From positions 120-64,119 of the forward strand of contig CAVECL010000006.1 of NCBI GenBank assembly GCA_963614595.1: a stretch of 64,000 bases of DNA, read 5' to 3'. A program made the translations under genes and the position numbers. The notes below the pieces were generated by a model. It did no database searches, was not told the origin of the DNA, and was given only the letters and a program-made list of their open reading frames with translations. Of the stretch, positions 2,943 to 27,058 are shown one piece after another (the stretch's first letter is position 1; each line of letters opens with the position of its first letter). This stretch comes from Parasutterella excrementihominis (GTDB lineage: Bacteria > Bacillota_I > Bacilli_A > RFN20 > CAG-826).

Positions 2943-4744
2943 TATTCGACAATCGCGTATCCTTCTCCGATTTTGTTCCATTCAGAGGAGTGTTCAACGT
3001 TGTTTTTAAAATAGTCTTCGGTCATATTCACGGAGATCTTGTTTCCGGCCTGGCCTAGTTTGGTGCAGCCATAGAAGGCGCGCGAGCCGATCGAAGTGAG
3101 AGTTGAAGGGATGATGAAACCAGACAAGGAGTAAAGCTGAGAGAAAGCAAAGGAGTCGGCTTTCTGAAGGCCGGGAAGCCTCAATGTCTCCAAGGCCCTG
3201 TTTCCTCGGAAGGCGTTAGAGGTGACGTATTTTACGGAGTCAGGGAAGATTGCTTTAGAAAGAGAAGAGGAATAGTCATCTGCGCCGTCGCTGAATTTCT
3301 TAATGCCCACGAGCTCGAAAGCGCCGGGAAGAGAGGCAAGGCTCATATCGTCTTCGCCGAGTTCCGTATCGCTTCGCGAAGAAGGGGAGGAAAACTTTGT
3401 CAAAAGGTACCCGCCCCAATCAAGAGAATACTCGTAAGTAAACAGATCGCCTTTTGCCCCAGTTGCATCAATGGATTTTTGGACAACGACAGGATACAAA
3501 GTAAGCCCCTCCCTCACTTCCTTGGAAGGATCGACTATCTTCTCTTTGTTCAAATCGTTTTGCTTTTCGCTCCAAAATCCGGTGAAAACCTCGCCGCTAG
3601 ACAAGGATGCATCATCGATTTCCGACGGAAGGACGTTTTCCAAAGAAGACCCGTAGGAGACCGTTTTCTCATCAATCAAAGACCCGTCGTTGTTTCGGAA
3701 AGCAATGGTGATTTCTTCCGGGGAAGACTCGAAAACCGGGTATAGGGCACAGTCATAAAGGACATGTTTATAGTCAACGGATTTTCCTCTGATTTCACTT
3801 GGAGCGTCTTCTGCATATGCGCCTTCCCAGCCTATAAAAGAATAGACTTTGTGATCGGAGGTATAGTCAGGAAGCGTCTTCTTTACAATCGACCCATAAG
3901 CGACTTTCTCGTTTTCGCTTGCGGCAAGCAGTTCATTGCTACCTGCGTCTTTAGGGCTCTTATAGAAAGAAACCGTGTAAGTTTCAACGCTCGGGCCATC
4001 AAAGACCGCGGAAAGTTTCAAATCGTTCTTGATCTCGATATCGAAGAGTTCATCGATGCTATAAGTCTTCCCATCCCCGTCTTTGTAGCCAGCAAAGGCG
4101 TAAACCTGATAATAGTACTTTGGGAGAGTGTAATCCGACGAATCTAAAGCAAGGGCTTCTTTGGCGCTTTCTGCAGAGCCGTATTTCTCGACCAAGGCAT
4201 CCCCCAATTTGGTTCCGTGCTCAAGCGGTTCACTCGCTTTGTAAATTTCGTTATCGCCGTTTTGTATGGCGACGCTATAGGTATTGATTGTGTCGGAAAA
4301 ATGAGCAAAAACAGCGCAATTCCCCTTTATATCCTTCAAATCGACAGGCGTTTCTATTAAATCTTCCGCATTCTTTTCAAAAGAGGCGCCCCCTTCCGAG
4401 TCCGCCATCTTAAGGCTTTCTTCATCGTAATACCCCACCCAAGAATCCCAAGTGTAAGTATGGCCTTCCTTTGTTTGGCGGCTATTCTCGTAATCGATCG
4501 CTTTCCCGTCTTTTTTCACAAAGCTAGTTAACCGCGCGGTTTGGTTTGCTCTTCCTTTTACTACATATCCCTCGCCAATTTTAGAGGCTTTGCTCTTATC
4601 AAGTTTCCCGGGAGCGTATTCAATGCCGTCGTAATCCGTGTAAAACTCAATCGTATAAACGTCCGCGTCAGCCATCGTTTTGCAAGATACCAAGGCAGAA
4701 GAGAGAACAAGGAGTCCAAGTGTTGCGCGGATTTTGCGGTTCAT
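2933..4744 (-). CDS. Surface lipoprotein with F.GW-type repeat modules and a C-terminal BspA-type leucine-rich repeat
   Basis: Signal peptide plus lipobox (LSSALVSC). Recurring modules end in FAGYKDG / FIGWEG / FTGFWSE, like the Listeria-Bacteroides repeat. The C-terminus carries LRR units (AFRGNRALETLRLP, FAFSQLYSLSGFIIP, IGSRAFYGCTKL). Confidence 0.75.
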   Translation of the reverse strand: MNRKIRATLGLLVLSSALVSCKTMADADVYTIEFYTDYDGIEYAPGKLDKSKASKIGEGYVVKGRANQTARLTSFVKKDGKAIDYENSRQTKEGHTYTWDSWVGYYDEESLKMADSEGGASFEKNAEDLIETPVDLKDIKGNCAVFAHFSDTINTYSVAIQNGDNEIYKASEPLEHGTKLGDALVEKYGSAESAKEALALDSSDYTLPKYYYQVYAFAGYKDGDGKTYSIDELFDIEIKNDLKLSAVFDGPSVETYTVSFYKSPKDAGSNELLAASENEKVAYGSIVKKTLPDYTSDHKVYSFIGWEGAYAEDAPSEIRGKSVDYKHVLYDCALYPVFESSPEEITIAFRNNDGSLIDEKTVSYGSSLENVLPSEIDDASLSSGEVFTGFWSEKQNDLNKEKIVDPSKEVREGLTLYPVVVQKSIDATGAKGDLFTYEYSLDWGGYLLTKFSSPSSRSDTELGEDDMSLASLPGAFELVGIKKFSDGADDYSSSLSKAIFPDSVKYVTSNAFRGNRALETLRLPGLQKADSFAFSQLYSLSGFIIPSTLTSIGSRAFYGCTKLGQAGNKISVNMTEDYFKNNVEHSSEWNKIGEGYAIVEYQS

Positions 4745-5388: not shown

Positions 5389-5877
5389 TTAGGCGAGATG
5401 ATCCAGGATGAACTTAGGAACGTCATCGTAATTGATGTCCAAGGCCAAGGAGAGAGCCCCGTAAATTAAAGGCTGGGCGCGCCCAACGAACTGGGAATCC
5501 ATAGAATTGAGATGCCCATCCTTCTTCTTCCTCTGCATCGCCCCTTCTAATAGAGGCGCAAGATCGGCGATAGTTCCGTTCTTAAGGACTTCTTCATAAG
5601 TCATTTTGCGCTTTTTGGAATCGGTGATATACCAATCTTTATTCGGGGATGGCCAGTGGCTCACCATCTCGATGGCGTCTTCTTTGGTGATGGGCTTCTG
5701 CAAAGAGGAGGAAAAATTCACAGGAACGCGAACGATATTGCCTTTGTCGTCTCCAAAAAGAGGAGACAAAACATAATATAAAGAACCGGATTCGTCGCCC
5801 GGAAGCGGAGCGATCGCCTGAATCAGACAAACGCCACAATGCCGATGAAAAACGTACTCGCTAACTTGAAACGTCAT
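5389..5877 (-). CDS. CarD/CdnL/YdeB-family RNA-polymerase-binding regulator (tentative)
   Basis: 162 aa. The N-terminus FQVSEYVFHRHCGVCLIQAI...YYVL...VRVPV fits the CarD_CdnL_TRCF N-domain pattern. AAGGAG SD lies upstream. Confidence 0.6.
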   Translation of the reverse strand: MTFQVSEYVFHRHCGVCLIQAIAPLPGDESGSLYYVLSPLFGDDKGNIVRVPVNFSSSLQKPITKEDAIEMVSHWPSPNKDWYITDSKKRKMTYEEVLKNGTIADLAPLLEGAMQRKKKDGHLNSMDSQFVGRAQPLIYGALSLALDINYDDVPKFILDHLA

Positions 5878-6051: not shown

Positions 6052-6726
6052 TTAGGAAATAAAGTTTTTTACCTTCTCTTCAATCGCGTCCGCTAAGACG
6101 TCTACACCAGTGTCTTTTTTTGCCGAAACAGGAAAGAATTTCGCGTTGGGATTAAGCTTAAGAATATGGCTTTCAGCAAGATCCACATCAAAATCGAATA
6201 CAGCCTTCGCGTCCATCTTCGTAAAAGCGAAAAAATCACCCACTTTAAACATCAAGGGATACTTAAGAGGCTTGTCGTCTCCTTCAGGAATTGAAAGCAG
6301 GATGAGTTTCAAGGCTGCTCCGGTATCGAATTCCGCAGGGCAAACAAGATTCCCGATGTTCTCAAGGAAAATAATATCCAGCCCATCTTCGCCGATTGCT
6401 TGAACGCCCTCTGAAACCATTTTTGCATCGAGGTGGCATTCGCCCGAAGTATGAAGCTGAATTGTCCTAACGCCAGTAAGTTTGCCAACGGTCTCAGCGT
6501 CCACCACCGCATCCATGTCCGCCTCCATCACGCCAATTCGATAGCCTTTATCCTTCAATTTATTAATAAGGTTAACGAGCAATGTGGTTTTGCCAGAGCC
6601 GGGAGAAGACATGACGTTGATCAAGAAGACTTTCTTTTCCTTAAGTTCAGCTCTAAGCAGTTCAGCCCTGCTATCGTTGTTGGCAAGAACGGACTGCTTT
6701 ACTTTGATAACGCGTATTTCTGACAT
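6052..6726 (-). CDS. hypB: Hydrogenase/urease nickel-incorporation GTPase HypB
   Basis: Walker A SSPGSGKTTLL and the diagnostic ENIGNLVCPAEFDTG motif. 224 aa. Confidence 0.9.
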   Translation of the reverse strand: MSEIRVIKVKQSVLANNDSRAELLRAELKEKKVFLINVMSSPGSGKTTLLVNLINKLKDKGYRIGVMEADMDAVVDAETVGKLTGVRTIQLHTSGECHLDAKMVSEGVQAIGEDGLDIIFLENIGNLVCPAEFDTGAALKLILLSIPEGDDKPLKYPLMFKVGDFFAFTKMDAKAVFDFDVDLAESHILKLNPNAKFFPVSAKKDTGVDVLADAIEEKVKNFIS

Positions 6727-7057
6727 GGATATTCCCTCTCTTAATGCCCGTATATATTAAAGGAAATAACAAAAGACGAACCAAGAAATTCATTTTAAGT
6801 TCAAGACAAGTCAAAAGCCAATTAAAAAAAGAAGAGGGAGGTGTATGTATTTTTAAAACTTGATTTCATAATCATTTTGGATAAATTGACGATGTCAAAA
6901 TTCTCTTATGCCATAGTTCATTTCATTTTAATTCAGACAACGGCGAAACTTTTCCGATTCTCCAAATCGTAGAATCGCTTTTCTACGCACGCGATACGCA
7001 CACTAGAGTGCGTTTGACAAAGGTTTGCATAAAATCCCATCGTCGAGATTTGCGGCC

Positions 7058-8170
7058 ATGTTATTCGAAAAGTTCAGAAAAAAGAAAAACGAGAAAAAAG
7101 GGGATTCTCCTGATACGCAAAATGCGGAAGCGCAAGAAAGAAGCGTAAAGGGAGAGGCATGCGTGAACTCCGGGGAGCAAAGTGCCCAAACAGAAGAGGC
7201 AAAAACCAGCCCTGACGCAAAAAAGGAAAAGGCTCCGATAAGCAAGGGGCTCATCGTCACATCCTCAATCATTGGAGTCCTGGCGGTCGCCCTAGGGGTA
7301 GTCGCCGGATTCCTGGCTCACAGTTTCTTCAACACCGCCGGAGGCGATTACTCAAACGTCGACGCGAACGCTCTAACAGACGACATCGCAAAGACGCGAA
7401 AGAAATACGAGCAAGCCAAAAAAGCAGGAACCCCCCTAGAAGAAGCCCTGAAACCATGCGAGATGGTAAACATATCGCTTGACCTCTTCTCCTCCTTGGA
7501 ATCAACAAAAACAGTCGGGCTTGGCTCGGCTTACTCAATGGGCGTCAACCAGATCATCCAGTCTATCCAAATCAAGTGTGGCGATAAGTACTTCGAGGAA
7601 TCGAATTCCACATCGGCCTTCGTGAAACTCTATGACAGGATGTACCAAGAAGAGGAAACCACAAAAACCTATTGGGGCAAAAGCATCGACTACTCTTCAC
7701 ACGAAGAAAAAACCTACACGAACGAGGAATACGCTGAGCTCATGGGACGCAAGGTGAGCGACCCTATGATCTACATAATCTCAACGAAAACCTCGATCAC
7801 AGACGAAAGCAAAGTTAAATCAGGGAGAGGCGCCTCAAGGATTGTCAAAGAGAAGAACGGCTACACGGTTGACCTCGAGCTTCAAAGGACGAAGTCCGTC
7901 GTGAACTATGTGAAGCAGATGAAAAACATCTCCGGTCTCACCGGATACCCAACCTTCGAATATTGCCATTTGACCTTCCACCTAGACGAAAGCCTAATGC
8001 CGCTCGATTACACCTCCTACGAGAAATACCAAGCGACAAAGAAAGAAGTTGGAATATCCACCACGATCGAAGGGAATCTGACCACTTACTTCTATCACGG
8101 GGAAACTTACGAAATACCAACCCTAGAAACCGAAACCCAATCCGAATATCAAAACTTAAGCGCCAATTGA
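7058..8170 (+). CDS. Single-pass membrane protein, unknown family (first gene of the giant-paralog module)
   Basis: ORF 7025..8170 trimmed to the ATG at 7058. The start is uncertain because there is no clear SD. Lys/Glu-rich N-terminal head, one TM helix (GLIVTSSIIGVLAVALGVVAGFLAHSFF), and a ~270-aa ectodomain with no recognisable motif. Confidence 0.7.
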   Translation: MLFEKFRKKKNEKKGDSPDTQNAEAQERSVKGEACVNSGEQSAQTEEAKTSPDAKKEKAPISKGLIVTSSIIGVLAVALGVVAGFLAHSFFNTAGGDYSNVDANALTDDIAKTRKKYEQAKKAGTPLEEALKPCEMVNISLDLFSSLESTKTVGLGSAYSMGVNQIIQSIQIKCGDKYFEESNSTSAFVKLYDRMYQEEETTKTYWGKSIDYSSHEEKTYTNEEYAELMGRKVSDPMIYIISTKTSITDESKVKSGRGASRIVKEKNGYTVDLELQRTKSVVNYVKQMKNISGLTGYPTFEYCHLTFHLDESLMPLDYTSYEKYQATKKEVGISTTIEGNLTTYFYHGETYEIPTLETETQSEYQNLSAN

Positions 8171-8188
8171 ATCTGAAAGGAAACGATT

Positions 8189-11100
8189 ATGAAAACAAAC
8201 AAAAGCCAAAAACATCTAAGTTCTAAGAAAAAGGCCCTCCTCTTCAACTCCGGACTGTTCCTAGCCCTCTTCGGCATTACCGCAGGAACCACTTATTTGA
8301 TGATTCCAAAGAAAGGAATGGCGGAAGATGAGGACATCAGCAATGTCGATGACGGCGATAACGGCGACATCACTTTAACAGGCAAGCAACGTTTCATTTC
8401 GAACCTCACCAATAGCGCCACCTCGGGCTTGAACCTCAAGTTCGACGTTTTGGACGCCTACTTCCCAGGCAAAGACAAAGATGACACCTCCAAAGGAAAC
8501 CTCATCAATGGCAAGGGCACCCAAGTCGCATTCGCGATGGACGAGATATCTTTCCATGGCATCAGCCTCGGGCTGAAAGCCAAGCTAGATTATAATGGCT
8601 ACAAAAGGCAGCTCAGCCTCGCCAAGTGCCTTGATGATATCTATTTCGCAATCAATGATTTGGACAACGAGACCTACAACTTCAAATACAAAGCCTCAAT
8701 CGAGCCCAAAGTCACCGGCGAACGCGACGAGACGACCGGAGGCATCCTCCAATACGAATACGGCGACGTCGACTGGATCATCTCCGATGTTTTGGAGATC
8801 CTCTCGAATGGGGGCATCAAAGTCGATTTCCCCAAAATTGACTTAAACAGCTTGGGCTCCTCTTCCGATTCTTCTTCAGGCAGCTCCGATGAAGATGGCT
8901 CTAATGCCATGTCGGGCATCTTGAGTTCGCTAAACGATATGGAGGAAGACACCGCCCATTCTTACATGACTTGGAATCTTCCTCTAGGCGAAGAGACCCT
9001 CTCCATCGGTTTCACCTACGATAGCGATTATTACCTAAGCGGCATCGACTTTCCCGCGAAGACTTTCGATGGCTCCGAGCAGGGAAGCTATTCCATCAAA
9101 AACGGCGATGCCTTGGTCGGAACGATTCGCGCAAGCGCGACTGTCGAAACCGGCGCCGAAGCAATCTCCTGGACCTCCTTCATCCCCGGAGAGATCGCCG
9201 AATATCATGACATCAAGGACAGCGCCTCGCTTTTCCGCAAAGTCGCGCGTTACATCGCCAACCCCCAATTCGGCCTCAAGACCACGAACTCTTTAAACAT
9301 CAATTCCGGGAACGGCCTTGCTCTCACCCATTATAAAAAAGATGGCGACAGCGTGACTTCCGATGTCATCGAAACCGCTTCGCTCGACCTCTCCGCCTGC
9401 GCTGATTTCTCAGGCGGCCTCCAGAACTTCCTCGCGGATATCTCTTTCACCGCGGACAACGCTTCGGCCTATATCTCCGCGGCTTACCTCGAGGATAACG
9501 CTTACCTCAACATCGATGACCTTTTGATGGCCAAAGTCAGCAAAACGAATCTCGATGCCTTGTTCGCCAAGACCGTCACTTCGCTTTCTGAAGATGGCGA
9601 AGTTGAAGAAAGCGTTGAGGAAGCAAGCGCCATCACCGACTTGATTTCCACCGTCCTCGACAATTTCCCCACCATCAAAAGCTTCGCCGAAGGACATTAC
9701 GAGAAAGCTTTTGACTTTATCAAGTCCATCGACGGGACCGACAATAACCTCAGCATCACATTCGATCTAAGCCCAGTGAAGATCGATGGGGAAGTCACCG
9801 TCAGCATCGACGGCACCTACGCGGACGAAGATAATGGCGTCGACACCTATCTCAGCGGCATTACCTTCAACAGCGTTAAGCTGAGCGCTTTCCAGTTAGA
9901 TGGGACTTTATCCTTGGATGCTTATTCCCTGCCTAGCGTCGAAACAAGCAGCTATGACGAATTGATCCATCTTCCTGGCATCAAAAACCAAATCGAAGAA
10001 GTGACCTCCTCAAAAGAAGCGGCGCTCTCCTTAACGGGCAACGTCAAAACAGGGAAGATGGACGCTCTCGGCAAAGAGACCGGGGTCTCCTTCTCTGGCA
10101 ATCTCGGTTTCTCCTACGATAAGAAATCCGCCGGCGTTTCCCTAACCGCGAATCAGGTCTCCAAAAACTATTCGCAAGACCACCACTTCAAGTTCGCTCT
10201 TTCTGGTGACGGCACCGATTTCACCGAGACCGCGTTCAAATACGACTCGGTGAATGACGCTTCCATCGATAGCGAATCCGGCTTAGACAGCGAGGGCAAA
10301 GCCAGAACCAACCCTCGTTCCTCAAGCCCCGTCACCGGGAAAATGTCCATTTCTTCGATGAAAGACATCATCTCCACCGTCAAGAGCGTCATCCCCGAAG
10401 AAGAAGAGGGCGAAGCCTCCTCCTTCCAGAAGATCGCCAGTTCCATTGGCGGCCTCGTTGGAGGCGATTTGGCTGGCGACCTCATCAACAAGAAATATTC
10501 CGGCCTCTTTGAAAAGAAGATCCTCGCCGAGAAAGCAAGCCTTGGCGGAGATGAGAACAAGTTCGTTCTCAACGGCGATCTGTTCGGCTTAGACGAGAAC
10601 CCCGTCGTTACCATTTCTTACGAGGCGAACAGCGAAGACGCCAACGGCGGATTCAAGAGCCTCAACTTCGCGATGAGCAAAATGAGCATCGGGCTTGGCG
10701 TCGAAGCCACGAAGGACGTCAATGAAACCATCCTCAACCCTTTGAAGGGCGAAGACACCTCTTCCTATACGGATTTCAACACCGTGAAGACCCTCGTCGA
10801 ATACGCGACGGGATCCACGAAGCTGGGCAAGGTCGCTTCAGGCGATTCCTCCACTTATGACATCTCGCTCAACGTCGCCCTTAATATTGGCAAAACGAAG
10901 ATTAACCTCATCGGAGTGAGCCTTAACCTCGCGAGCGAAAAAGACTACGTCAAAGCCCATCTTTCCATTCCTTATATGCCGCTAATCAAAGGAGTGAACG
11001 CGCCTGATAGCTCCGTTTATTTCCGTGACCACGAATACGAAGGAAGGCGCGCCGTCGACCTCTATTATTCCTATAAAAAAGGCGATGCGAGCTACGGCGA

Positions 11101-11821
11101 TCTCTATATCACCCGCAACTCCAGCTATGGCAAAGTCACCGAAGTCAAAGACACGGTTCAGCTGACCGGCAAAGATCTCATCGAGAAGACGGGAGACGAA
11201 GGGGGAACCTATTCTTACAACGGCCTCGGTTGGCTTCTTGAATACGTTCTCGGCATCAACGAAAGCTACCTTAGGAAGGATAACGCCCCCGCAGCAGAAG
11301 AGGGAACCGTCGCCGAAGCAAGCCAAGAAGAAGGCAGCAATCTCTTTGACAACGCTTTCCCCCATCCGGAAGACTTCTTGAAACAATACCAATATGACGA
11401 GGCGAACATCTCTTGGTCGCTCGGCGTCGACGTGGGCTCCTTGCTCGATGAAAGAGCCTTGCTTGGCGACGCGATGATCTCTATTTCCGGCAAGAATGTT
11501 GCTTCCAGCGATGCCTCGACCTCCTGGAAGACTTTAAGCAACCTCAACATTAGTTTCGGCTTAGTCCTCGGCAACCCCGATGGCTCCCATCAGATTGTCC
11601 CGGCTTCCGCGGAAATCGAGCTGGCTCTCGATAATGTCTCTACAGGCGTCTACCAAAACACTTGGGAAAACGTCTCCGTGAATGACTTCACCTCCGTCGT
11701 CTCTTATGACGATAAGGGCGATGTGAGCTTTGCCTATGGCGACGATTACACGAAGCATTATAAGAAGGATGGCGATTCTTCCTTCTTGCCAGGCAACTAT
11801 TACGTTGGCGTGACCTGCTAA
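8189..11821 (+). CDS. Giant (1210 aa) N-terminally TM-anchored surface protein, unknown family; paralog of 11823..15299
   Basis: Uninterrupted 3.6-kb ORF with GAAAGGAAA upstream. N-terminal signal anchor ALLFNSGLFLALFGITAGTTYLMI. Ser/Asp/Gly/Thr/Asn-rich. Colinear with the next ORF along its full length. Confidence 0.9.
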   Translation: MKTNKSQKHLSSKKKALLFNSGLFLALFGITAGTTYLMIPKKGMAEDEDISNVDDGDNGDITLTGKQRFISNLTNSATSGLNLKFDVLDAYFPGKDKDDTSKGNLINGKGTQVAFAMDEISFHGISLGLKAKLDYNGYKRQLSLAKCLDDIYFAINDLDNETYNFKYKASIEPKVTGERDETTGGILQYEYGDVDWIISDVLEILSNGGIKVDFPKIDLNSLGSSSDSSSGSSDEDGSNAMSGILSSLNDMEEDTAHSYMTWNLPLGEETLSIGFTYDSDYYLSGIDFPAKTFDGSEQGSYSIKNGDALVGTIRASATVETGAEAISWTSFIPGEIAEYHDIKDSASLFRKVARYIANPQFGLKTTNSLNINSGNGLALTHYKKDGDSVTSDVIETASLDLSACADFSGGLQNFLADISFTADNASAYISAAYLEDNAYLNIDDLLMAKVSKTNLDALFAKTVTSLSEDGEVEESVEEASAITDLISTVLDNFPTIKSFAEGHYEKAFDFIKSIDGTDNNLSITFDLSPVKIDGEVTVSIDGTYADEDNGVDTYLSGITFNSVKLSAFQLDGTLSLDAYSLPSVETSSYDELIHLPGIKNQIEEVTSSKEAALSLTGNVKTGKMDALGKETGVSFSGNLGFSYDKKSAGVSLTANQVSKNYSQDHHFKFALSGDGTDFTETAFKYDSVNDASIDSESGLDSEGKARTNPRSSSPVTGKMSISSMKDIISTVKSVIPEEEEGEASSFQKIASSIGGLVGGDLAGDLINKKYSGLFEKKILAEKASLGGDENKFVLNGDLFGLDENPVVTISYEANSEDANGGFKSLNFAMSKMSIGLGVEATKDVNETILNPLKGEDTSSYTDFNTVKTLVEYATGSTKLGKVASGDSSTYDISLNVALNIGKTKINLIGVSLNLASEKDYVKAHLSIPYMPLIKGVNAPDSSVYFRDHEYEGRRAVDLYYSYKKGDASYGDLYITRNSSYGKVTEVKDTVQLTGKDLIEKTGDEGGTYSYNGLGWLLEYVLGINESYLRKDNAPAAEEGTVAEASQEEGSNLFDNAFPHPEDFLKQYQYDEANISWSLGVDVGSLLDERALLGDAMISISGKNVASSDASTSWKTLSNLNISFGLVLGNPDGSHQIVPASAEIELALDNVSTGVYQNTWENVSVNDFTSVVSYDDKGDVSFAYGDDYTKHYKKDGDSSFLPGNYYVGVTC

Positions 11822-11822
11822 G

Positions 11823-14800
11823 ATGCGCGGAAAAGAAAAAGCAAACAACTCTTTTTGGGAGCGGAGAAAACCCTTCGCTCCTTTGAAGCACTTGGCTCTA
11901 GTCGCTTTGGCTTTTTCTTTGTCTTCCTGCGCCTCTTCTAGCGTCGCAAAAGCGAATCGCCAAGAAAGCGAGACGGTTGAGGAAAGCCACACAAGCGAAA
12001 GCGTTGGGGCGAAACGCCTCGCGGAAAGCCTCACGAATTCCCTTACCTCCGGCTTGTCGCTCAAGCTTGACCAAATGACTTTGAAGGCGGACGAGAATAA
12101 CGTCTTCGAATTCAGCAACGGCTCTTTGTCCTTTGACTTAAAGGAGCTGTCGCTTCATGGCTTGAACATGGGCTTGCAGGCTGAGGTTGACTATAACGCC
12201 AGCGGAGGAAGGTCCATCGACGCCAGACTCGTTGATGACGAGCTTTATTTCGCTTTGGAAGCCCCAGGATCTGACGACGTCACCTATAATGTAGCCTATA
12301 AAGTTTCCACCGCTTCCTATCGCTACGGCGAAGAAAACGGCCGCGACTCCGTGACCGGAGGCATCACTCAGTACGAGTTCGGCAGGCTTGATTGGGTGTT
12401 GGAAGATATTCTCCAAATCCTTTCTTCCTTCGGCTATGAGGTAAAGCCCAACTTCAAAGACACTTCCACGATTGACTTTGGAAAAATCTCCTCTTCTTTG
12501 GATGATCTGAACGAAATCGACGCAGAAAGCCATTATTTCGTTTGGAATTTGCCAATTGGGGAGAACATTTATTCCGTCGGTCTGCAAGGCGATGAGGACT
12601 ACTATCTCTCCAAGATTGATTTTCCTGCCAAAGGCACGGGAGCATCGAACAAGCTAAGCAACGGCATGGAGCTAAGCCTCTCGGCTTGTTTTGATTATAG
12701 CGGAGCTCAAATAGCTGCCCCGGAGAACGCTTCTTCTTATCTTTCCTTAGATAACTCAATTGACCTTTGGGAGAGGATCGCCACTTATGCCGGCAAGCTT
12801 TCTTTTGACGTCTCCACAACCCACACGGAAAGCGGAAACGAAGAAGAGGGGCTGTTGCTCACGCACCATGAAGATACCGTCGAAAGCACCGCGACCACAA
12901 TCGGTCACCAAGGTTTCGACGAGAAGCTCACCTTCTCGCTGAGCGGCGGAGCCAATTTCCAAAACCAAAAAATCAACGATCTTTCAATCAATGCCGTTTT
13001 CAAAGGGGAGAAGCAAACAAAAAAGCTCGCCGGGCATTACGTTCAGGGGAAAGCCGACAAAGAAGCCTATGTCAACGTAAACAACATCCTAAAAGTAAAG
13101 ACCAGCAAAACAACCGCCGATGCTTTCTTCAGCGCTTTCGCAGATCTATTAGGCGACGAATCCATCAAAAACGAATACCTCTCTTCCCTGTTTTCTTCCA
13201 TTGGCTCCATCAGCGACGCCTTCGAAAGCGTGAAGAACAGCCTCATCGGCAAAGACATCTCCGAAAAGCATTACGAGCATTTCTTAGAGGCTTTGATTTC
13301 CCTAGAAAGCAAAGACAATCAAATCGAGGCGACTTTCGATTTCAGCAAAGCAGGGGGAGAAGGCAAACTGATTTTCCGTTTGAGCAGCAGCGATTTCGCT
13401 TTGGCTTCCCTTACTTTCGATGGCTTCTCCATCGGGGGGTTCGGAGTAGAAGGGACTTTGAAAATAAGCGATTACACAGGCTCTGCCTCCTTTGCCGAAG
13501 ACGAATACGAAGAAATGGATCATTTGCCGACTTTGACCGACCAAATCCAAAATCTATATCAGCATCATTCCATGAAGGCGAACGTTCAAGGCTATGTCCT
13601 TGACCGCGGCACAACCGCAGTCAGCAGCGATTCCCGTTTCGCTTCCATAAACGGCAAAGTCATTACCGAGCAAGGATTCAGCCTTGAAGGAAGCTTTGCT
13701 TTTAACCTGCAAGAAAAAGCGGCGCGCGCGAACGCCGTGGTTCTCGACCGCAAAGCGGATTATCTAAATGAGCACGCCATCGCGTTGCAGTTAGACGGGG
13801 AAATTGGCTCAAGCGCCGAAACAGGCGACATGCTCTTCTCTTATGATTCAAGCAACACTTTGAAAAGCGGCGGCGCCGAAGGCTACAAAGATTTGAATTA
13901 CGGAAACATCAGTGAGCCCGATGCGGAAACGCTTTATGGCAAGTTCAGCGTCTCCTCTTTGAATGACATCTTAGAGCTCGCGACGACTTTGCTCAGCTCC
14001 GACGATCCTCGCTTCACCAAATTCACCTCCGCCGCCAACACTTTGGCCACAACTCTCGTCGCTAAAATCTCCCAAGGCCAATTCGCTCCGCTCCTCAGCG
14101 AGAAAATACTCGTGAGCGTCGCTCGCACAGGCGACAAGATTTCCGCGGTTATCTCAAAGGATGTTTTAGGCAGCGAGGAAGACGTTCCTTTAAATATAGA
14201 ATTCAATGAGGATGGGATCTCCTCCATCGACTTCAATTTGATTACCGATTCTAAAGAAATTTATTTCAAAATCGATGCAGAAGTCCCTCAAACGACTCTT
14301 TCCAAAACGGATTTGCAAGTTTCTGATCTCCAATCGAAGCGGGATACGATGACGGATTTCTCTTCGCTTTCAACGTTGCTAGACTACGTCCTCGGATCTG
14401 CGACTTTAGGGGAAGATGAGAATAACGTATCAACTTATCACTTAAGCGGGACGGCAAAATTGACTATTCTTAAAGTGTTTAACAAAGACGTCCCGTTCTC
14501 GGTTTGGGTTTCACTAAACGGGGCCGAAGTGAAAATGATAGGAACGATTGAAGTTCCAATGATAGTCGGAGTGAACGGAGGAGGCGGGGCCTTTGGCGGC
14601 GGGACTCGTTACGTCGAATTCTACTTCCACACCTCTGGAGACGATTCAGACGGCACCATCTTTTTCCATCGCGTAAACCAAAAGCAAACCGCCGGAATCA
14701 CGATTGATAACATTTCAGAAGACTGGGCCAAGGTCAAGGTCAGCGATTTCAATGCAAACATCATGAACTGGATGCTGGGTTACGTGATGGGCATGGGCTC

Positions 14801-15299
14801 AACCATCATGGATCAGATTACCACGACCGATTCGTCCCAAGGGTCTTCTTTGCATGGCGAGGAGTTGATTTCCTCCTACTCTCACTCCGAGAGCGGCGGA
14901 ACGCACACTTGGGACGCGAAAATGGACCTGAGTTCCTTGTCCAGCTCTTTGACTTCGCCTTTGGAGGTCAAGATTGAGGGAAAAGAGGTTAATGTTGGCA
15001 ATGAAAAGCAAAAGACTTTGACGGCTATTAGCGGCAATGTCGGCTTGGTTTCCGTAATCACAATTTCCTTCAGCGCAACTCTAGCCAACGTCTCTACCGG
15101 GACCTATGTTTCCGTTTGGAATAGGGGATCCGGACCGTCCGAAGGCCAAATCACGCTGCGCTCGCCCAATAAGAAAAAAATCAACACAACCAATCTGCAA
15201 GCGGCCGACGCCTATGCGACCAACTATTATGATAACGGGTACGTGACGAGCGGCAATTTCGCTTCCGCCACCACTTACGTGACCTACCCCATCAGTTAA
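11823..15299 (+). CDS. Giant (1158 aa) lipoprotein, unknown family; paralog of 8189..11821
   Basis: The ATG lies 1 nt after the upstream TAA. Signal peptide with lipobox (LALVALAFSLSSC). Shared blocks with the upstream protein run from the N- to the C-terminus. Confidence 0.9.
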   Translation: MRGKEKANNSFWERRKPFAPLKHLALVALAFSLSSCASSSVAKANRQESETVEESHTSESVGAKRLAESLTNSLTSGLSLKLDQMTLKADENNVFEFSNGSLSFDLKELSLHGLNMGLQAEVDYNASGGRSIDARLVDDELYFALEAPGSDDVTYNVAYKVSTASYRYGEENGRDSVTGGITQYEFGRLDWVLEDILQILSSFGYEVKPNFKDTSTIDFGKISSSLDDLNEIDAESHYFVWNLPIGENIYSVGLQGDEDYYLSKIDFPAKGTGASNKLSNGMELSLSACFDYSGAQIAAPENASSYLSLDNSIDLWERIATYAGKLSFDVSTTHTESGNEEEGLLLTHHEDTVESTATTIGHQGFDEKLTFSLSGGANFQNQKINDLSINAVFKGEKQTKKLAGHYVQGKADKEAYVNVNNILKVKTSKTTADAFFSAFADLLGDESIKNEYLSSLFSSIGSISDAFESVKNSLIGKDISEKHYEHFLEALISLESKDNQIEATFDFSKAGGEGKLIFRLSSSDFALASLTFDGFSIGGFGVEGTLKISDYTGSASFAEDEYEEMDHLPTLTDQIQNLYQHHSMKANVQGYVLDRGTTAVSSDSRFASINGKVITEQGFSLEGSFAFNLQEKAARANAVVLDRKADYLNEHAIALQLDGEIGSSAETGDMLFSYDSSNTLKSGGAEGYKDLNYGNISEPDAETLYGKFSVSSLNDILELATTLLSSDDPRFTKFTSAANTLATTLVAKISQGQFAPLLSEKILVSVARTGDKISAVISKDVLGSEEDVPLNIEFNEDGISSIDFNLITDSKEIYFKIDAEVPQTTLSKTDLQVSDLQSKRDTMTDFSSLSTLLDYVLGSATLGEDENNVSTYHLSGTAKLTILKVFNKDVPFSVWVSLNGAEVKMIGTIEVPMIVGVNGGGGAFGGGTRYVEFYFHTSGDDSDGTIFFHRVNQKQTAGITIDNISEDWAKVKVSDFNANIMNWMLGYVMGMGSTIMDQITTTDSSQGSSLHGEELISSYSHSESGGTHTWDAKMDLSSLSSSLTSPLEVKIEGKEVNVGNEKQKTLTAISGNVGLVSVITISFSATLANVSTGTYVSVWNRGSGPSEGQITLRSPNKKKINTTNLQAADAYATNYYDNGYVTSGNFASATTYVTYPIS

Positions 15300-15307
15300 G
15301 GAAGAAT

Positions 15308-15336
15308 TTGCCCAAAGGTTTTCCCGCGCCTAAAAT
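15308..15336 (+). promoter_or_regulatory. Candidate sigma-70 promoter giving a leaderless mRNA for the XRE-membrane regulator
   Basis: TTGCCC, 17-nt spacer, TAAAAT. The -10 box ends 6 nt before the ATG at 15343. No usable SD. Confidence 0.35.
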
Positions 15337-15342
15337 AGAGGC

Positions 15343-15969
15343 ATGGAAAACCTTGCCCTAACGGTTGGAAAGAATCTCTCGGCCCTGCGCAAAGCCAAAG
15401 GCCTTACGCAGCAAGAGCTCGCTCAGCAAATCAATTACAGCGATAAATCCCTTTCCAAATGGGAGCTCGGCTATGCCTTGCCCTCTGTCGACGTTATGCT
15501 AGACATCGCTCATTTCTATGGGGTCACCATTGATTATTTGACGCAGGAGCACCTTCCGGAAGCCATTGAGCAACAAATCGCAGAAGATAAGAAGCAAGAC
15601 GTGAACGCTTCTAACAAAGCCGTTATCCTCGCGATGACTCTAACTTTTGTTTTGCTGGTCGCGATGTCGATCTTTTTCTCCTCTTATTTTATTCACGAAG
15701 GAAAAGACCTCCCCATCGGCATCTGGTCAGTCTATGTTTGGATGATTCCGATCATGTGTTTCCTTTCTGCTTGGGAGGTGCGCTGGTTCTATCATAACCG
15801 CGTCGCTTTCTGGGTTCTTGCAAGTTCTTTCCTATGGTCTCTCCTTTTAGCGTTCTGCTTCTACTTTCAATTTTTTAGGGTGCCGAGCGAGAACGTTTGG
15901 TTCATCTTGGTCGTCGGAATTCCTATACAGATCATTTTGGTTCTTCTTGCCAAATATAAGCGCGTCTAA
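15343..15969 (+). CDS. Membrane-tethered XRE-family HTH transcriptional regulator
   Basis: The N-terminus LSALRKAKGLTQQELAQQINYSDKSLSKWELGYALPSVDVMLDIAHFYGVTIDYL is a classic HTH_3/XRE domain. It is followed by four hydrophobic helices. Confidence 0.85.
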   Translation: MENLALTVGKNLSALRKAKGLTQQELAQQINYSDKSLSKWELGYALPSVDVMLDIAHFYGVTIDYLTQEHLPEAIEQQIAEDKKQDVNASNKAVILAMTLTFVLLVAMSIFFSSYFIHEGKDLPIGIWSVYVWMIPIMCFLSAWEVRWFYHNRVAFWVLASSFLWSLLLAFCFYFQFFRVPSENVWFILVVGIPIQIILVLLAKYKRV

Positions 15970-16031: not shown

Positions 16032-17804
16032 ATGGATGAAAAAGTTTGGGATCTAAGTCGAATCTACCCTAATCAAGAGAAATTCGACGCGGATTTAGAA
16101 AAGCTAAAAGGCATCGCCGATCAAATGGGCGGATATGCCGGCAAGCTAAGCGACGAAGAAAAGCTAAAGGAATATCTCACTCTGGAAAGGGAGATGAACG
16201 ACCTTCTCGAACACCTTTATATGTTCGCCGCGATGCAAAGCGACAAGGACAAGAAGAACGTCTCTTACACCGAGACCGAAAGCAAGGTCTTCTTGGTTTT
16301 GCAGGACATCAACGCGAAGACGAGTTTCGAATCGCCGGAGCTCATCGCCTTAGGAAAAGAGAAATTAGATGGCTTTTTGCGGAGGAATCCGGAATTCAAA
16401 GACTATTCCTTCATCTTTGAGAAACTCTTCAATAGCCAGAAATACGTTCTTTCCCCGGAGAAGGAAAAGCTTATGGCGTCCTTTTCTCCGATCGCAGGTG
16501 AAGGCGGCGAACTTTATAGCAAACTCTCCGTTGGAGACTATGTTCCCGCGAAGGCTAAGCTAAGCGATGGCAGAGAAATCGAGGTCAGCACGTCGAATTG
16601 GACCGACCTCATCAGCAAAGAGCCAAAGCAAGAAGACCGCGCGGCGATATTCGAAGCCCTATACTCCCAATTCGAAAACCACAAGAACGTCTACGGCGAA
16701 ATCTATAATCTCACCGTTCAAAATGAGCTCGCCGAGATGAAGGCTAGGGGCTATTCCTCTATTTTGTCCGAGCACCTTTCCGGAAACGCAATCCCCGAAA
16801 GCGTCTTCATGAACCTAGTGGAAGTAGCCTCCACTCACGCCGAGCCCCTTCATCGTTACTATAAGATCAGGGCCAAAGCCCTTGGCTTGGAGAAGCATCG
16901 TAGCTACGACCGTTTCATGCCTTTGGCAAAATCGGACAAGCATTATACCTACGAAGAAGCGAAGAACCTTTTCTTTGCTTCCATCTCCTCCTTCCCCCAA
17001 GACTTCCAAGACAAAGCCCACGAAGTCCTGAAACCAGGCTACGTCGACGTCTATCCATCATCAGGAAAACGCAGCGGAGCCTATAGCAATGGCGGAAGCG
17101 GCGTACACCCCTACATTCTTCTGAACTTCGTCGGCAATCTTGAAGACGTCTTCACGCTCGCTCATGAATCAGGCCACTCCATTCATACGCTTTATAGCGA
17201 GGAGAATCAGCCGAAATTAAAGCAAGGCTACGCCATCTTCGTCGCCGAGATCGCTTCAACTTTCAACGAGCATAACCTCCTCGATTATTTGCTTTCCTCC
17301 GGCGAGCTCAACAAAGACGACAAGATTGTCTTGCTTCAAAAAGCCATTGATCAGATCGTCTCGACTTTCTACCGCCAAACCTTATTCGGCCATTACGAAT
17401 ACGACATCGCGAAGCTCGCCGAAGAAGGCAAGCCAATCAACTATTCCGTCTTAAATGAAGAAATGGTGAAGCTCTACAAGACCTACTATGGCATCGACAT
17501 CACCGAAGAAAAAGTGAAGCCGATGGTCTGGGCTTACATCCCCCACCTCTTCTATACCCCCTTCTATGTCTACCAATATGCGACGAGCTTCACTTCTTCC
17601 ATGCTCATCTACGAGAAAGTGAAGAAAGGCGAGAAAAACGCCTTCGAAAACTACATCAAAATGCTCTCCGCGGGAGGCAGCGATTGGCCGATTGAAGAGG
17701 TGAAGATTGGCGGGGTTGACCTCACCACAAAAGAGCCCTTCCTCTCGGTTATCCACCGCATGGAAGAGCTCGTCGATCAGCTTGAGAGGCTGTTGGGCGA
17801 ATAA
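16032..17804 (+). CDS. pepF: Oligoendopeptidase F (M3B)
   Basis: 590 aa with the zinc motif TLAHESGHSIH and typical PepF length and N-terminal region. Confidence 0.9.
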   Translation: MDEKVWDLSRIYPNQEKFDADLEKLKGIADQMGGYAGKLSDEEKLKEYLTLEREMNDLLEHLYMFAAMQSDKDKKNVSYTETESKVFLVLQDINAKTSFESPELIALGKEKLDGFLRRNPEFKDYSFIFEKLFNSQKYVLSPEKEKLMASFSPIAGEGGELYSKLSVGDYVPAKAKLSDGREIEVSTSNWTDLISKEPKQEDRAAIFEALYSQFENHKNVYGEIYNLTVQNELAEMKARGYSSILSEHLSGNAIPESVFMNLVEVASTHAEPLHRYYKIRAKALGLEKHRSYDRFMPLAKSDKHYTYEEAKNLFFASISSFPQDFQDKAHEVLKPGYVDVYPSSGKRSGAYSNGGSGVHPYILLNFVGNLEDVFTLAHESGHSIHTLYSEENQPKLKQGYAIFVAEIASTFNEHNLLDYLLSSGELNKDDKIVLLQKAIDQIVSTFYRQTLFGHYEYDIAKLAEEGKPINYSVLNEEMVKLYKTYYGIDITEEKVKPMVWAYIPHLFYTPFYVYQYATSFTSSMLIYEKVKKGEKNAFENYIKMLSAGGSDWPIEEVKIGGVDLTTKEPFLSVIHRMEELVDQLERLLGE

Positions 17805-17810
17805 AAGAAA

Positions 17811-17849
17811 GAGGGAAAACGCGTTCGCGTCCTCCCTCTTTTTTGTTTT
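17811..17849. terminator. Bidirectional intrinsic terminator between pepF and clpB
   Basis: GAGGGAaaACGCG-tt-CGCGTccTCCCTC hairpin. TTTTTTGTTTT follows on the plus strand and a T-rich run follows on the minus strand. Confidence 0.8.
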
Positions 17850-19977
17850 AGGCGGCATTTGCCTTCTTTAGAAGCAGCTCTTCGCCATCCATGTCAAGGA
17901 GATATTTGGACTCCGTATCAAGGCTCCCTTCGACAATCTTGTTCGCGAGGAAGGTCTCGATCTTATCCTGAATGAACCTCTTCAACGGACGGGCGCCGAA
18001 CTCCGCGCTGTAAGCGTTGTGAAGAACGTAATCCTCAACCTTCGGAGTGAATTCCACCGAGACGTATTGCTCTTTCAAGCGATTCTCAAGCTCGACGAGC
18101 ATCTTTCTGACGATCTTCTTTTGAACGCCCTCGCCCAAAGGATTGAAGTAGATAATCTCATCGATGCGGTTTAGGAACTCGGGCTTGAAGGTCTTGTGGA
18201 GCAAATCATCGACCTTGTCTTTTTGCCCGGAGAGCAGGTATTCGCTGCCGAGATTGCTCGTCATAATGATGACTGTGTTGCGGAAATCAATGAGACGCCC
18301 CTGGCTATCAGTCAAACGACCTTCGTCCAAAACCTGCAGCAGGAGGTTGAAGACTTCCGGATTCGCCTTCTCGATTTCATCGAAGAGGACAATCGAATAG
18401 GGGGATCTGCGGACTTTTTCAGTAAGCTGGCCGCCCTCTTCATATCCCACGTATCCCGGAGGCGCGCCCACTAGACGCGAGACGGAGAATTTTTCCATAT
18501 ACTCCGACATATCGATTCGGATGATGGAGTTCTCATTGTCGAACAAGGCTTCCGCAAGGGCTTTAGAGACCTCGGTTTTGCCAACGCCCGTCGGACCAAG
18601 GAACAAGAAGGAGCCAATCGGACGATTAGGGTTCTTGATACCCGCCCTTTGGCGAATGATCGCGTTGGAGACAAGATTGATTGCCTCGTCTTGGCCAATG
18701 ACTCTTTGCTCAAGGGTCTTTTTGAGATCCAAGACTTTCTCTCTGTCGCCCTTCTTGATGCGGGATACGGGGATGCCGGTCATTCTGCCAACGATCTTGG
18801 CAATTTCCTCCTCGTCCACAACCTCATTGACGAGCCTCTCTTTGTCTTTGCTTGCCACCGAGACGTCATGGAGTCTTTGCTGAAGTTCAGGAATGGTTTT
18901 GTATTGTAGTTCAGAAGCTTTCTTATAATCGCCTTGGGCAAAATAATTGGAGAGGTTGCGCTTCGCGTCTTCAATTTCTTTCTTGAGGTTTTTCGCCTCG
19001 CTTACCTCTTCTTTCTCTTTCTGCCATTCTTTATTCAAGGAATCGAATTTCTCCTTGTCCTCAGCAAGCTCTTTTTCAAGAGCCTCCATGCGGCGCAAAG
19101 AGGACTCGTCTTTTTCCTTAACAAGCGCGACCTTTTCGATTTCAAGACTTCTGATTTTGCGAGAAACCTCATCCAGCTCGGTAGGCATCGATTCGATTTC
19201 GACCTTAATGGAGGCGCAGGCCTCATCCAAAAGGTCGATTGCCTTATCTGGCAGGAAGCGGTTTGTGATGTAGCGGTTTGACAAGGTGGCCGCGGAAATA
19301 AGCGCCCCATCGGTTATCTGAACGCCGTGGTAAGACTCGAAACGTTCCTTTAAGCCACGCAAGATTGTTATGGTGTCTTCGACGGTCGGCTCTCCAACCA
19401 TGACGGTTTGGAAACGCCTTTCCAAAGCGCGATCTTTCTCGATATATTCGCGGTACTCATTAAGGGTGGTCGCGCCAATGCAATCGATATCGCCCCTAGC
19501 CAAAAGAGGCTTCAAAAGATTCGCCGCATCCATAGCGCCTTCGGTTTTGCCCGCTCCAACGATCAAATGAATCTCATCAATAAAGAGAATCGTTTTGTGA
19601 TTGCTTTCCTTTATCTTGTTAAGGACGGCTTTCAGACGCTCCTCGAATTCGCCACGGTATTTCGCTCCGGCAACTAGCGCGCCCATATCAAGTTCGTAAA
19701 TCGTCTTGCCTTGAAGCGAGACGGGGACGTCTTTCTTCACGATGCGCTCTGCAAGTCCTTCGACAATCGCGGTTTTGCCCACGCCAGGCTCGCCTAATAA
19801 AACGACGTTGTTCTTGGTTTTTCTAGCCAAGACTTGTATGACTTTTCTTATTTCTTCGTCCCTGCCGATCACGGGGTCGACCTTGCCGCTGGAAACGGCT
19901 TCATTGAGATCCCTGCCAAATTTCTTTAAGACATCGGGATCGCGAGAATAATCAATCGGTTGTTCCATGTTATCCAT
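17848..19977 (-). CDS. clpB: ClpB disaggregase lacking the N-terminal domain
   Basis: Two AAA modules ([15 protein letters not shown] and [15 protein letters not shown]) with a long coiled-coil M-domain between them. The protein starts about 15 aa before NBD1. AAGGAG SD lies 6 nt upstream. Confidence 0.93.
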
Positions 19978-21871: not shown

Positions 21872-21940
21872 GACCCTATTGTAAAGCCAAGCAGTGCAAG
21901 CAAGAAAAGAAAAAGCGCGATAGTTGCCCATTTCTCAGGG

Positions 21941-23173: not shown

Positions 23174-23174
23174 C

Positions 23175-24053
23175 TTACTTGCCCTCCTTTCTGGCTTTGA
23201 TCATCGCCAGGGTGATGAGCTCATCCCCGTCGATGTTCACATTCTCAATGAATTTGGGTTTGAAAGCCTCTTTGATTCTCGTTAAAGCCGCCTCGTCTTC
23301 CTCCATGACGAAGTTGAGCACGGAGCCCACCTTCCGATAGGAAATAAGCGAGCACATGGAGGAGAGCTCTTCTTCCGTGGGATTGACCTCAAAGAAGGCT
23401 TGGAACTTCACAAAGTTCTCGCCCAAGGACTGGGTTTCCTGATTTTCCGCGAGATGCCCTTTCGAGAGCATCACGAAGCGGTCCGCGAGCTTTTCCAAGG
23501 TCGAGATATTGTGGCTGGAGATGATGATGTTCCTGCCATTTTCTTTCTCTTTGATGATCTCTCCCTTAATTGCATCTAGAGCAATCGGGTCAAGGCCGTC
23601 GAAAGCTTCATCCATCAGCAGGTATTTCGTTTTCGCGGACAAGGCCAAAGCGACGAAGAGCTGCCTTCTCATGCCTTTGGAGAAGTTATTGATTTTCCCG
23701 GTCGGAGGCAGAGAGAAATTCGTCAAGATTCCATGAAAACGGTCCAAATCAAAATCATAGAAGCAAGAATAGAACTCATAGACTTTGTCGATCGTTGAAT
23801 TCGCTGGAGAATAAGGGAAGTCGGAGAGGAAATAGACTTCCTTCTTCGCCTCGACATCCCTTCTTTCTTTCCCGTCAATATGGATGGAACCTTCCTCGGG
23901 ATTAAGGACCCCGGCAATGCAGCGAAGAAGCGTAGACTTGCCGGCGCCATTCTCGCCCACAAGCCCTGTGATACCGTCTCCAATGGTTAATTGGAGCCTA
24001 TCAAGCGCTTTCGTGGATCCGAAGCTTTTGCTGACGTATTGGATCTCGATCAT
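23175..24053 (-). CDS. ABC transporter ATP-binding protein
   Basis: Walker A GENGAGKSTLL, signature-like FSKGMRRQL, and Walker B LLMDEAFDGLD. Overlaps the GntR stop by 4 nt. Confidence 0.9.
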   Translation of the reverse strand: MIEIQYVSKSFGSTKALDRLQLTIGDGITGLVGENGAGKSTLLRCIAGVLNPEEGSIHIDGKERRDVEAKKEVYFLSDFPYSPANSTIDKVYEFYSCFYDFDLDRFHGILTNFSLPPTGKINNFSKGMRRQLFVALALSAKTKYLLMDEAFDGLDPIALDAIKGEIIKEKENGRNIIISSHNISTLEKLADRFVMLSKGHLAENQETQSLGENFVKFQAFFEVNPTEEELSSMCSLISYRKVGSVLNFVMEEDEAALTRIKEAFKPKFIENVNIDGDELITLAMIKARKEGK

Positions 24054-27022: not shown

Positions 27023-27058
27023 CGGGGTTTATTCTAAACTATGCGCCGGAGGTATTTT

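Follow-up and report, generated by a model that had tools for sequence, protein, structure and literature searches.

A conserved four-gene module of uncultured Bacilli encoding giant, predicted beta-rich surface proteins and a membrane-embedded XRE-type regulator

A conserved module and its candidate operator

Positions 7058–15969 of a 64,000-nucleotide stretch of contig CAVECL010000006.1 (hereafter referred to as the window) carry four adjacent genes, which we call A, B, C and D. By sequence comparison, these genes are a conserved, dedicated and syntenic module found in uncultured Bacilli, relatives of Ca. Enteromonas, which is placed in order RFN20, family CAG-826 (PMC8035907). A palindrome located upstream of A and recurring in related loci provides the strongest sequence evidence that A–D constitute one regulatory unit. 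We tentatively suggest that the module may specify surface machinery for the capture or handling of lipids or other hydrophobic ligands.

All four genes are on the forward strand. Gene A (7058..8170, 370 aa, ATG start) codes for a bitopic membrane protein with a variable head, a transmembrane (TM) helix and an ectodomain predicted to be LolA/LprG-like. The product of gene B (8189..11821, 1210 aa) is a giant surface protein with an uncleaved N-terminal signal anchor. Its paralog, the product of gene C (11823..15299, 1158 aa), is a giant lipoprotein with a lipobox, LSSC, and a lipobox cysteine at position 36 (Cys36). Gene D (15343..15969, 208 aa) codes for a protein with an XRE-type helix-turn-helix (HTH) at the N-terminus and four TM helices at the C-terminus. 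Since all four proteins have conserved homologs, A–D are real genes and not chance open reading frames (ORFs).

A word-indexed search returned between 19 and 28 close homologs for each protein. When the B/C alignment was used for an exhaustive profile search, 226 representative clusters at 50% identity were obtained, 130 of them with E ≤ 1e-30; the named members of the B/C family appear solely as "hypothetical protein [Bacilli bacterium]". The related loci, numbered from L001, come from gut and rumen metagenome-assembled genomes (MAGs), including those of Ca. Enteromonas and Ca. Alloenteromonas. In the nearest locus, L001, B is 93% and ClpB 97% identical to the window proteins. The A-B-C-D order was found in all RFN20-type loci (L001–L023) of sufficient length, with the exception of L014 and L016, where the order is A-B-D-C. 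The M3 peptidase gene is usually located 3′ of the module in RFN20-type loci, with clpB convergent to it. A core consisting of an A-like gene, one or two giant genes and a D-like gene recurs in distant Bacilli MAGs (L024, L026, L027, L030 and L032–L036), where the A-like proteins are about 35–45% identical to A. The usual arrangement there is a divergent gene for a full-length D-like protein, an A-like gene of about 310 codons and one giant gene for about 940–1800 aa (L024, L027, L032, L033, L034 and L036). The other arrangement, seen in L026 and L030, is an A-like gene, a lipoprotein-type giant and an anchor-type giant, with the D-like gene about 4 kb away; L035 shows the same gene order on a contig that ends after the second giant. 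The loci examined each contained a single module, and its place in the chromosome is fixed; the orthologs are 52–93% identical between species, and A was always directly 5′ of a giant gene. Thus, the dedicated module that had been proposed in an original prediction made from the window sequence alone is indeed present, and syntenic, both in RFN20-type loci (as A-B-C-D or A-B-D-C) and, as a core, in distant MAGs.

The palindrome, a 19-bp inverted repeat (ATTCTCCAAATCGTAGAAT; 6957..6975, no strand), is a candidate operator located 83 nt 5′ of the A ATG. It had been missed in the original prediction. The copy in the window is the sole match in 64 kb to the consensus ATTCTCC-N5-GGAGAAT (7-5-7). 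With few exceptions, related loci carry the same palindrome 5′ of the A-like gene, distant L024, L027 and L033 included. A second copy is found 5′ of the separately placed giant genes of L014 (at 14589), L016 (at 14396) and L030 (at 14068), and a weaker one, with 3 mismatches, precedes the separate giant of L026 (at 9859). In divergent layouts the palindrome falls in the D-A intergenic region. The same is true of L032 and L034, in which drift has turned the motif into TCTCA-N6-TGAGA-like repeats. In 709 kb we counted 22 sites with no more than 2 mismatches. Shuffled sequences contained 2.3 on average and never more than 5, an about tenfold enrichment, and 20 of the 22 sites are located 5′ of A-like or separately placed giant genes.

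The N-terminal part of D (residues 13–66) matches Pfam HTH_3 with an E-value of 2e-15, and four hydrophobic segments are located at residues of about 93–115, 126–146, 153–176 and 184–203, as expected from the initial description of D as an XRE HTH fused to four TM helices. Full-length D homologs with a conserved TM region are encoded beside or near A-like and giant genes in RFN20-type loci and in 8 of the 12 more distant loci. We infer that the palindrome is probably the operator of D, because its form suits a dimeric XRE-type HTH and because no regulator other than D accompanies the module.

The gaps between the genes are 18 nt (A-B), 1 nt (B-C) and 43 nt (C-D); the four ORFs and these gaps agree with the original prediction. 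Inspection of the ORFs and a terminator scan showed, in line with the original prediction, that no terminator-like sites are present in these three short gaps. The reading frame of A is already open from a TTG at 7025; the ATG at 7058 was taken as the start because the starts of its orthologs (MLFEKF or MLFKK) coincide with it. Ribosome-binding sites of the AAGGA type and of a purine-rich GAGG type precede B and D, respectively. No Shine-Dalgarno sequence was found 5′ of the C ATG, which, as noted earlier, is located 1 nt past the TAA of B; in close relatives the B-C gap is 4–8 nt. The sole strong terminator near the module, a hairpin with a 15-bp stem and T-runs at 17808–17841, lies at the junction of the convergent M3 oligoendopeptidase and clpB genes and is probably bidirectional. 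No canonical σ70 promoter was found between the palindrome and the A ATG. The 43-nt C-D spacer contains a weak σ70-like match (TTGCCC-17-TAAAAT, 15308–15336) and D may therefore have its own low-level promoter in addition to operon read-through. A–D are presumably co-transcribed.

Protein A and the giant paralogs B and C

The conclusion that A, B and C have no recognisable family holds at the level of sequence and fails at the level of fold, for A and parts of C are predicted to be LolA/LprG-like. None of the three proteins matched Pfam or NCBIfam at E ≤ 1, save for a chance NCBIfam match of A (16 bits, with a cut-off of 670). When all 18 members of the A family and 21 members of the B/C family were compared with Pfam at E ≤ 10, only scattered noise was obtained, and LolA, LolB, LppX_LprAFG and MucB_RseB were not among the matches. 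Searches of PDB sequences with A, B, C and both family profiles revealed no relatives, the matches of the A profile (E 0.4–0.5) being due to chance. With PADLOC and PHROGs, A gave one match each, at the level of chance, and B and C gave no match; tblastn searches of plasmids with A and C and of phages with B gave no match. Because A, B and C have no plasmid, phage, PADLOC or PHROG relatives, the module is neither a mobile element nor a defence system. A literature search for LolA-like giant proteins in Mollicutes or Firmicutes found no description of them. Judged by these searches, the module is undescribed and its proteins A, B and C belong to no described sequence family.

Protein A consists of a Lys/Glu-rich N-terminal head, a single TM helix (residues of about 66–90) and an ectodomain of about 275 aa. 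This architecture had been recognized originally; the alignment of homologs, however, limits the cytoplasmic head (residues 1–65, window 7058–7250) to close relatives. Distant A orthologs start just ahead of the TM helix, and the conserved part comprises the TM helix and the ectodomain. Two glycines of the helix, G80 and G84, are invariant and stand four residues apart in a GxxxG-like arrangement, which may point to packing of the helix against that of a further membrane protein, with the anchor of B or D as candidates.

In an AlphaFold2 (AF2) model of A built with 18 homologs, ectodomain residues 100–370 have pLDDT >90, with a pTM of 0.72. The best Foldseek matches of the ectodomain in the PDB are LprG structures 3mh8 and 3mha (E 2.6e-5, prob 1.0, TMt 0.43–0.49). 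The LprG structures matched include the apo, phosphatidylinositol mannoside (PIM)-bound and triacylglyceride-bound forms. LolB, LolA, RseB, EPD-BCP1 (TMt 0.51), the ApoB-100 barrel and MTP were also matched, the last three being further binders of lipids or other hydrophobic ligands, and more than 15 LprG, LolB, LolA and RseB chains match A at prob 1.0, with TMt up to 0.49–0.51. According to the model, the A ectodomain is a half barrel of the LolA/LprG/LolB/RseB type, i.e., an unclosed antiparallel beta structure with a helical lid.

B and C are paralogs that align end to end, with 27% identity over about 1150 aa (E 1e-77), which agrees with their earlier description as giant paralogs. The N-terminus of B is charged and is followed by a hydrophobic anchor without a lipobox; C carries the lipobox. 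Both assignments match those made initially, and each type of N-terminus is retained in the respective orthologs. B orthologs also share an ending, ...NYYVGVTC, with a C-terminal cysteine (window 11800–11821), which C does not have. The AF2 model of C, built with 21 homologs (mean pLDDT 67, pTM 0.44), consists of successive sets of 5–7 long antiparallel strands with helical inserts between them. The giants are thus predicted to be beta-rich, as had been proposed for their ectodomains. Local Foldseek matches of C in the PDB include LolA (2w7q, 8cgm), LprG and RseB with prob 0.85–1.0, LolA and LprG reaching prob 1.0, and parts of C are accordingly modelled as LolA/LprG-like. The lowest E-values of C (1e-5) were obtained with TbpB, at TM-scores of ≤0.13. 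No TamB, VPS13, ATG2 or P116 structure was found among the top 50 PDB Foldseek matches of C, whose model has a pTM of 0.44, and comparison of C with viral structures revealed nothing meaningful. With hhalign, no relationship was detected between the A and B/C families, and no internal sequence repeats were detectable among eight segments of C.

Members of the B/C family are between about 940 and 4042 aa long. Longer relatives of B and C repeat a ~125-aa unit (profile positions of about 476–600), which is predicted to form a helix and five strands: there are 2 copies in L029, 3 in L027 and at least 8 in the 4042-aa protein P0188. The recurrence of this unit in longer relatives indicates that the family is modular and length-variable. 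The C-terminal 400 aa are the best-scoring stretch in most distant relatives. P0188 (L028, 10001–22129) also contains eight CBM5/12 carbohydrate-binding modules, the sole domain match in Pfam scans of distant relatives. No A-like gene is located near the P0188 gene, which is directly followed by a Lipase_3 gene.

Over the whole B/C family, we counted about 94 signal anchors, about 49 lipoboxes and one type-IV-pilin-like N-terminus. The latter (KRSGFTVIELIIVIAIMG) is genuine and belongs to a 1344-aa member encoded in L027 (15418–19452); it therefore represents a third kind of anchor or processing signal in the family. In L026, the best match of B is the anchor-type giant and that of C the lipoprotein-type giant. 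The duplication from which B and C arose is thus ancient, and both members of the pair have been kept. From the sequence comparison, this retained pairing of an anchor-type with a lipoprotein-type protein fits a B:C heteromer without being a proof of one.

Gene neighbourhood and possible functions

Upstream of the module, genes for a CobW/HypB-like GTPase (6052–6726, minus strand) and a CarD-like protein (5389–5877, minus strand) are syntenic in most RFN20-type loci. Their proximity to the module probably reflects synteny within the lineage and not a functional link. A CarD-like gene is also close to the giant gene of L028. The next gene after D codes for the M3 oligoendopeptidase (16032–17804), to which clpB (17848–19977) is convergent. 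Elsewhere in the window, a 603-aa BspA-type leucine-rich repeat (LRR_5) protein (2933–4744, minus strand), which is probably a surface protein, is unrelated to the module. The minus strand also encodes, in a run of three genes at 20165–24053, an ABC ATPase (292 aa), a 410-aa protein without a family and one of 588 aa in which an S41 peptidase domain is weakly matched, and, at 35440–36414, an unusual 324-aa fusion of a Vsr mismatch endonuclease with DUF559 and NUDIX. ORFs of 328, 217, 200 and 512 aa without a Pfam family are found at 26036–27694, 34773–35375 and 36421–37959.

In the distant loci, genes of lipid metabolism often adjoin the module. In L032 and L034, genes for PAP2, GT2 and a PlsC-type acyltransferase follow 3′ on the same strand. 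In L036, an esterase gene is directly 3′, and acyltransferase and diacylglycerol (DAG) kinase genes are 5′. The Lipase_3 gene of L028 is directly 3′ of the 4042-aa relative, and in L027 genes for LPG_synthase_TM and GT4 are located beside D. A phosphodiesterase gene is the corresponding neighbour in L033.

The function that we tentatively favour for the module, as a possible one, is that of an apparatus at the cell surface by which hydrophobic ligands such as lipids are captured or handled under the control of a membrane-embedded XRE regulator; of its steps, lipid handling is the least certain. In such an apparatus, signal-anchored B and lipid-anchored C would assemble into an elongated, modular heteromer, rich in beta structure, that stands out from the cytoplasmic membrane. 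The membrane-proximal half barrel of A would accept a hydrophobic or amphiphilic ligand or pass it on, the ligand most likely being lipids or glycolipids that come from, or are exposed to, the gut environment. D, held in the membrane by its four TM helices, would bind ATTCTCC-N5-GGAGAAT and tune expression upon a membrane-sensed signal. The lipid reading draws on predicted models, in which the top Foldseek matches of A include many binders of hydrophobic ligands and C has local LolA/LprG matches. The lipid enzymes in distant neighbourhoods are suggestive in the same sense, and so is an analogy based on the host: CAG-826 is predicted to be peptidoglycan-deficient (PMC10868615), and wall-less Mollicutes need dedicated surface lipid scavengers such as P116 (PMC10023570).

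Several observations speak against lipid handling. A LolA-like fold is no proof of lipid binding, for in monoderm Firmicutes GerS and SsdC are protein activators or scaffolds (bioRxiv 10.1101/2025.01.13.632879). The Foldseek TM-scores of A are moderate (0.4–0.5), and those of whole C are so poor that global matches are meaningless, the pTM of the C model being only 0.44. The invariant residues of A (window 7500–8100) are largely polar and include FEESNS, YDRMY, MGRxVS, NYVxQM and YCHLT, the last with an adjacent Cys-His; WG and ExY are further invariant motifs. Such motifs are unexpected in a purely greasy cavity of the LolA type. Judged by their sequence, they are more in keeping with a site of specific binding or catalysis, or with an interface between proteins, than with a greasy cavity, and a head-group site could be involved as well. 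The module of the window has no lipid genes next to it, its neighbours being those of the CobW-like GTPase, the CarD-like protein, the M3 peptidase and ClpB; PlsX and an acyl-ACP thioesterase are encoded elsewhere in the window, away from the module. The lipid-gene neighbourhood is suggestive but anecdotal, as it comprises about ten loci, some of them phylogenetically close. The eight CBM5/12 modules of P0188 suit an adhesin better. Finally, the A:B:C complex and the binding of the palindrome by D are steps that we infer, as is lipid binding by A, B and C.

A more specific form of the lipid reading, which we hold to be rather doubtful, is that B and C make up a length-variable heteromeric stalk of LolA-like half barrels that passes its cargo to A as the acceptor while D senses the lipid state of the membrane. 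The module would then represent a previously undescribed type of surface machinery with which monoderm or wall-less Bacilli capture and transfer lipids and, if so, a solution independent of both mycoplasma P116 and the diderm Lol, Lpt and AsmA systems.

The eight CBM5/12 modules bear directly on another explanation, in which B and C are an adhesin or fibril with a length-variable stalk and a conserved distal C-terminal head that binds host mucus, dietary particles or other cells, A being an anchoring or assembly partner. The N-terminal anchoring and beta-rich nature of the giants agree with this, as do the variable number of ~125-aa units in relatives from about 940 to 4042 aa and the C-terminal 400 aa, which score best in most distant relatives, as would be expected of a functional head. 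TbpB-type ligand-capturing surface lipoproteins give the lowest Foldseek E-values for C; the TM-scores of these matches, however, do not exceed 0.13. Adhesins typically evolve fast and occur in several copies, in contrast to a single module at a fixed position and with 52–93% identity. Nor are they typically accompanied by a dedicated regulator that is embedded in the membrane or by a strictly linked partner of the LolA type. Pfam searches revealed no known adhesin repeats, sortase or choline-binding motifs, and there is no C-terminal LPXTG, so that the absence of known adhesin repeats noted originally still stands. We regard an adhesin as an unlikely function.

An envelope scaffold or surface coat that supports or shields a peptidoglycan-less membrane, as a stand-in for a surface layer (S-layer), appears improbable. 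Conservation of the module beside housekeeping genes in a lineage predicted to be without peptidoglycan would agree with such a role, as would about 2700 aa of exposed protein held by three different membrane anchors, and there is a precedent in LolA-like SsdC, which forms a structural ring in Bacillus (bioRxiv 10.1101/2025.01.13.632879). Yet relatives are also found in genomes that encode EzrA and hence belong to possibly walled organisms, and a constitutive coat has no obvious need for a dedicated sensor-regulator and an operator.

The same source supplies a monoderm precedent (bioRxiv 10.1101/2025.01.13.632879) for a GerS-like role of A, which would bind and license a second protein as an activator or chaperone and would not carry free lipids; its target might be the lipid anchor of C or an enzyme. 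The LolA/LolB-like fold predicted for A is compatible with this role; the invariant polar surface cluster and the GxxxG-like TM motif suggest specific protein contacts, and A is always encoded directly 5′ of a giant gene. Recognition of a lipid anchor cannot be general, however, when about 94 giants are signal-anchored and 49 are lipoproteins, and no enzyme is consistently linked to the module. We consider this role quite improbable.

Lastly, an AsmA/TamB-like bridge in which B and C move bulk lipid along a continuous repeating beta-groove appears very improbable: B does have an N-terminal TM anchor, the secondary structure is a run of a helix and 5–7 long strands and one helix-and-strand unit is repeated in longer relatives, but there is no AsmA, TamB or DUF490-type match in Pfam even at E ≤ 10 and none in NCBIfam, the top 50 PDB Foldseek matches of C are half barrels and barrels with no TamB, VPS13 or ATG2 among them, and a monoderm or wall-less host has no second membrane to span.

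Bacteria of RFN20 and sister orders are common in gut and rumen, uncultured and of reduced genome size; their envelope biology is little known, and some are predicted to be wall-less. A phylogenomic paper on Tenericutes contained nothing on fatty-acid synthesis in RFN20. The module, which is dedicated, conserved and regulated and has about 2700 aa of exposed protein without a sequence family, is a good candidate for lipid acquisition or for interaction with the surroundings in such organisms. If capture and handling of lipids by the module, the function we favour, were true, the LolA/LprG superfamily would extend to giant multi-module proteins of monoderms, and the module would be a second independent example, after P116, of lipid acquisition by wall-less bacteria. 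The 19-bp candidate operator and the 208-aa membrane-embedded regulator make up a compact and directly testable sensor-promoter pair.

Comparison with known systems

Mycobacterial LprG, which together with LppX, LprA and LprF makes up a group of glycolipid carriers of the LolA superfamily, is the best structural match of the A ectodomain and a local match in C. Proteins of the LprG group are membrane-tethered, face outwards and bind acyl chains of glycolipids and triacylglycerides. A differs from them in having no sequence similarity, a TM anchor in place of a lipobox, about 80 additional aa and a conserved polar cluster. It is partnered with two giant paralogs instead of a major facilitator superfamily (MFS) pump, and the phylum and the envelope are different. 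The half-barrel fold predicted for A is also that of LolA and LolB, and LolB is membrane-anchored as well. A Lol sorting system was considered and rejected: the monoderm or wall-less host has no outer membrane, and LolCDE-type genes were found neither among the scanned ORFs of the window nor among the genes called in the distant loci. In the LolA/LolB/LppX superfamily (PLLLF, SSF89392), A would have a place by its predicted fold and has none by the sequence model.

Within monoderms, A shares the superfamily fold and the phylum with GerS and SsdC, which are located in the envelope and tethered as lipoproteins or by the membrane (bioRxiv 10.1101/2025.01.13.632879). GerS and SsdC function in sporulation and germination and, in contrast to the module, are small single-domain proteins without giant paralogs or an XRE-TM regulator.

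The giants resemble AsmA/TamB-like proteins in being very large, N-terminally anchored and predicted to be beta-rich, with repeated units of a helix and a beta-meander. Membership in this group, to which an analogy had been drawn originally, was abandoned, since neither sequence nor Foldseek comparison supports it and there is no second membrane. TbpB-type proteins are bilobed, lipid-anchored and all-beta; their handle-plus-barrel lobes capture an external ligand. They are Gram-negative and Slam-dependent, unlike C, and given TM-scores of ≤0.13 their match to C, although it has the lowest E-value (1e-5), is merely local or topological.

If the module does handle lipids, its functional analogue would be P116 of Mycoplasma pneumoniae, a large surface lipid extractor of a wall-less relative of Bacilli (PMC10023570, PMC12487902). 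P116 is described as a homodimer with a previously unseen fold (PMC10023570). A relationship between P116 and the giants was considered and not supported: there was no match among PDB sequences, P116 entries included, and the top 50 Foldseek matches of C do not include it.

The closest likeness in architecture for D is with one-component regulators of the BcrR type. BcrR, in which Gauntlett and co-workers are said to have found four TM helices in 2008, controls an ABC transporter, and the presumed targets of D are different. In both cases, an N-terminal XRE-type HTH is joined to a C-terminus with multiple (in D, predicted) TM segments in a protein of about 200 aa (PMC10269533, PMC3968067), the regulator gene adjoins its targets, presumed ones for D, and an inverted repeat is present in the promoter region. 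The best tblastn matches of D in plasmids are HTH regulators with 26–32% identity over residues 1–150, and bcrABD is absent beside the plasmid homologs of D in the two loci inspected. Compared with all these systems, the known parts of the module are the LolA-superfamily folds, as predicted, and the transmembrane XRE regulator, and the new part is the family of giant proteins combined with them.

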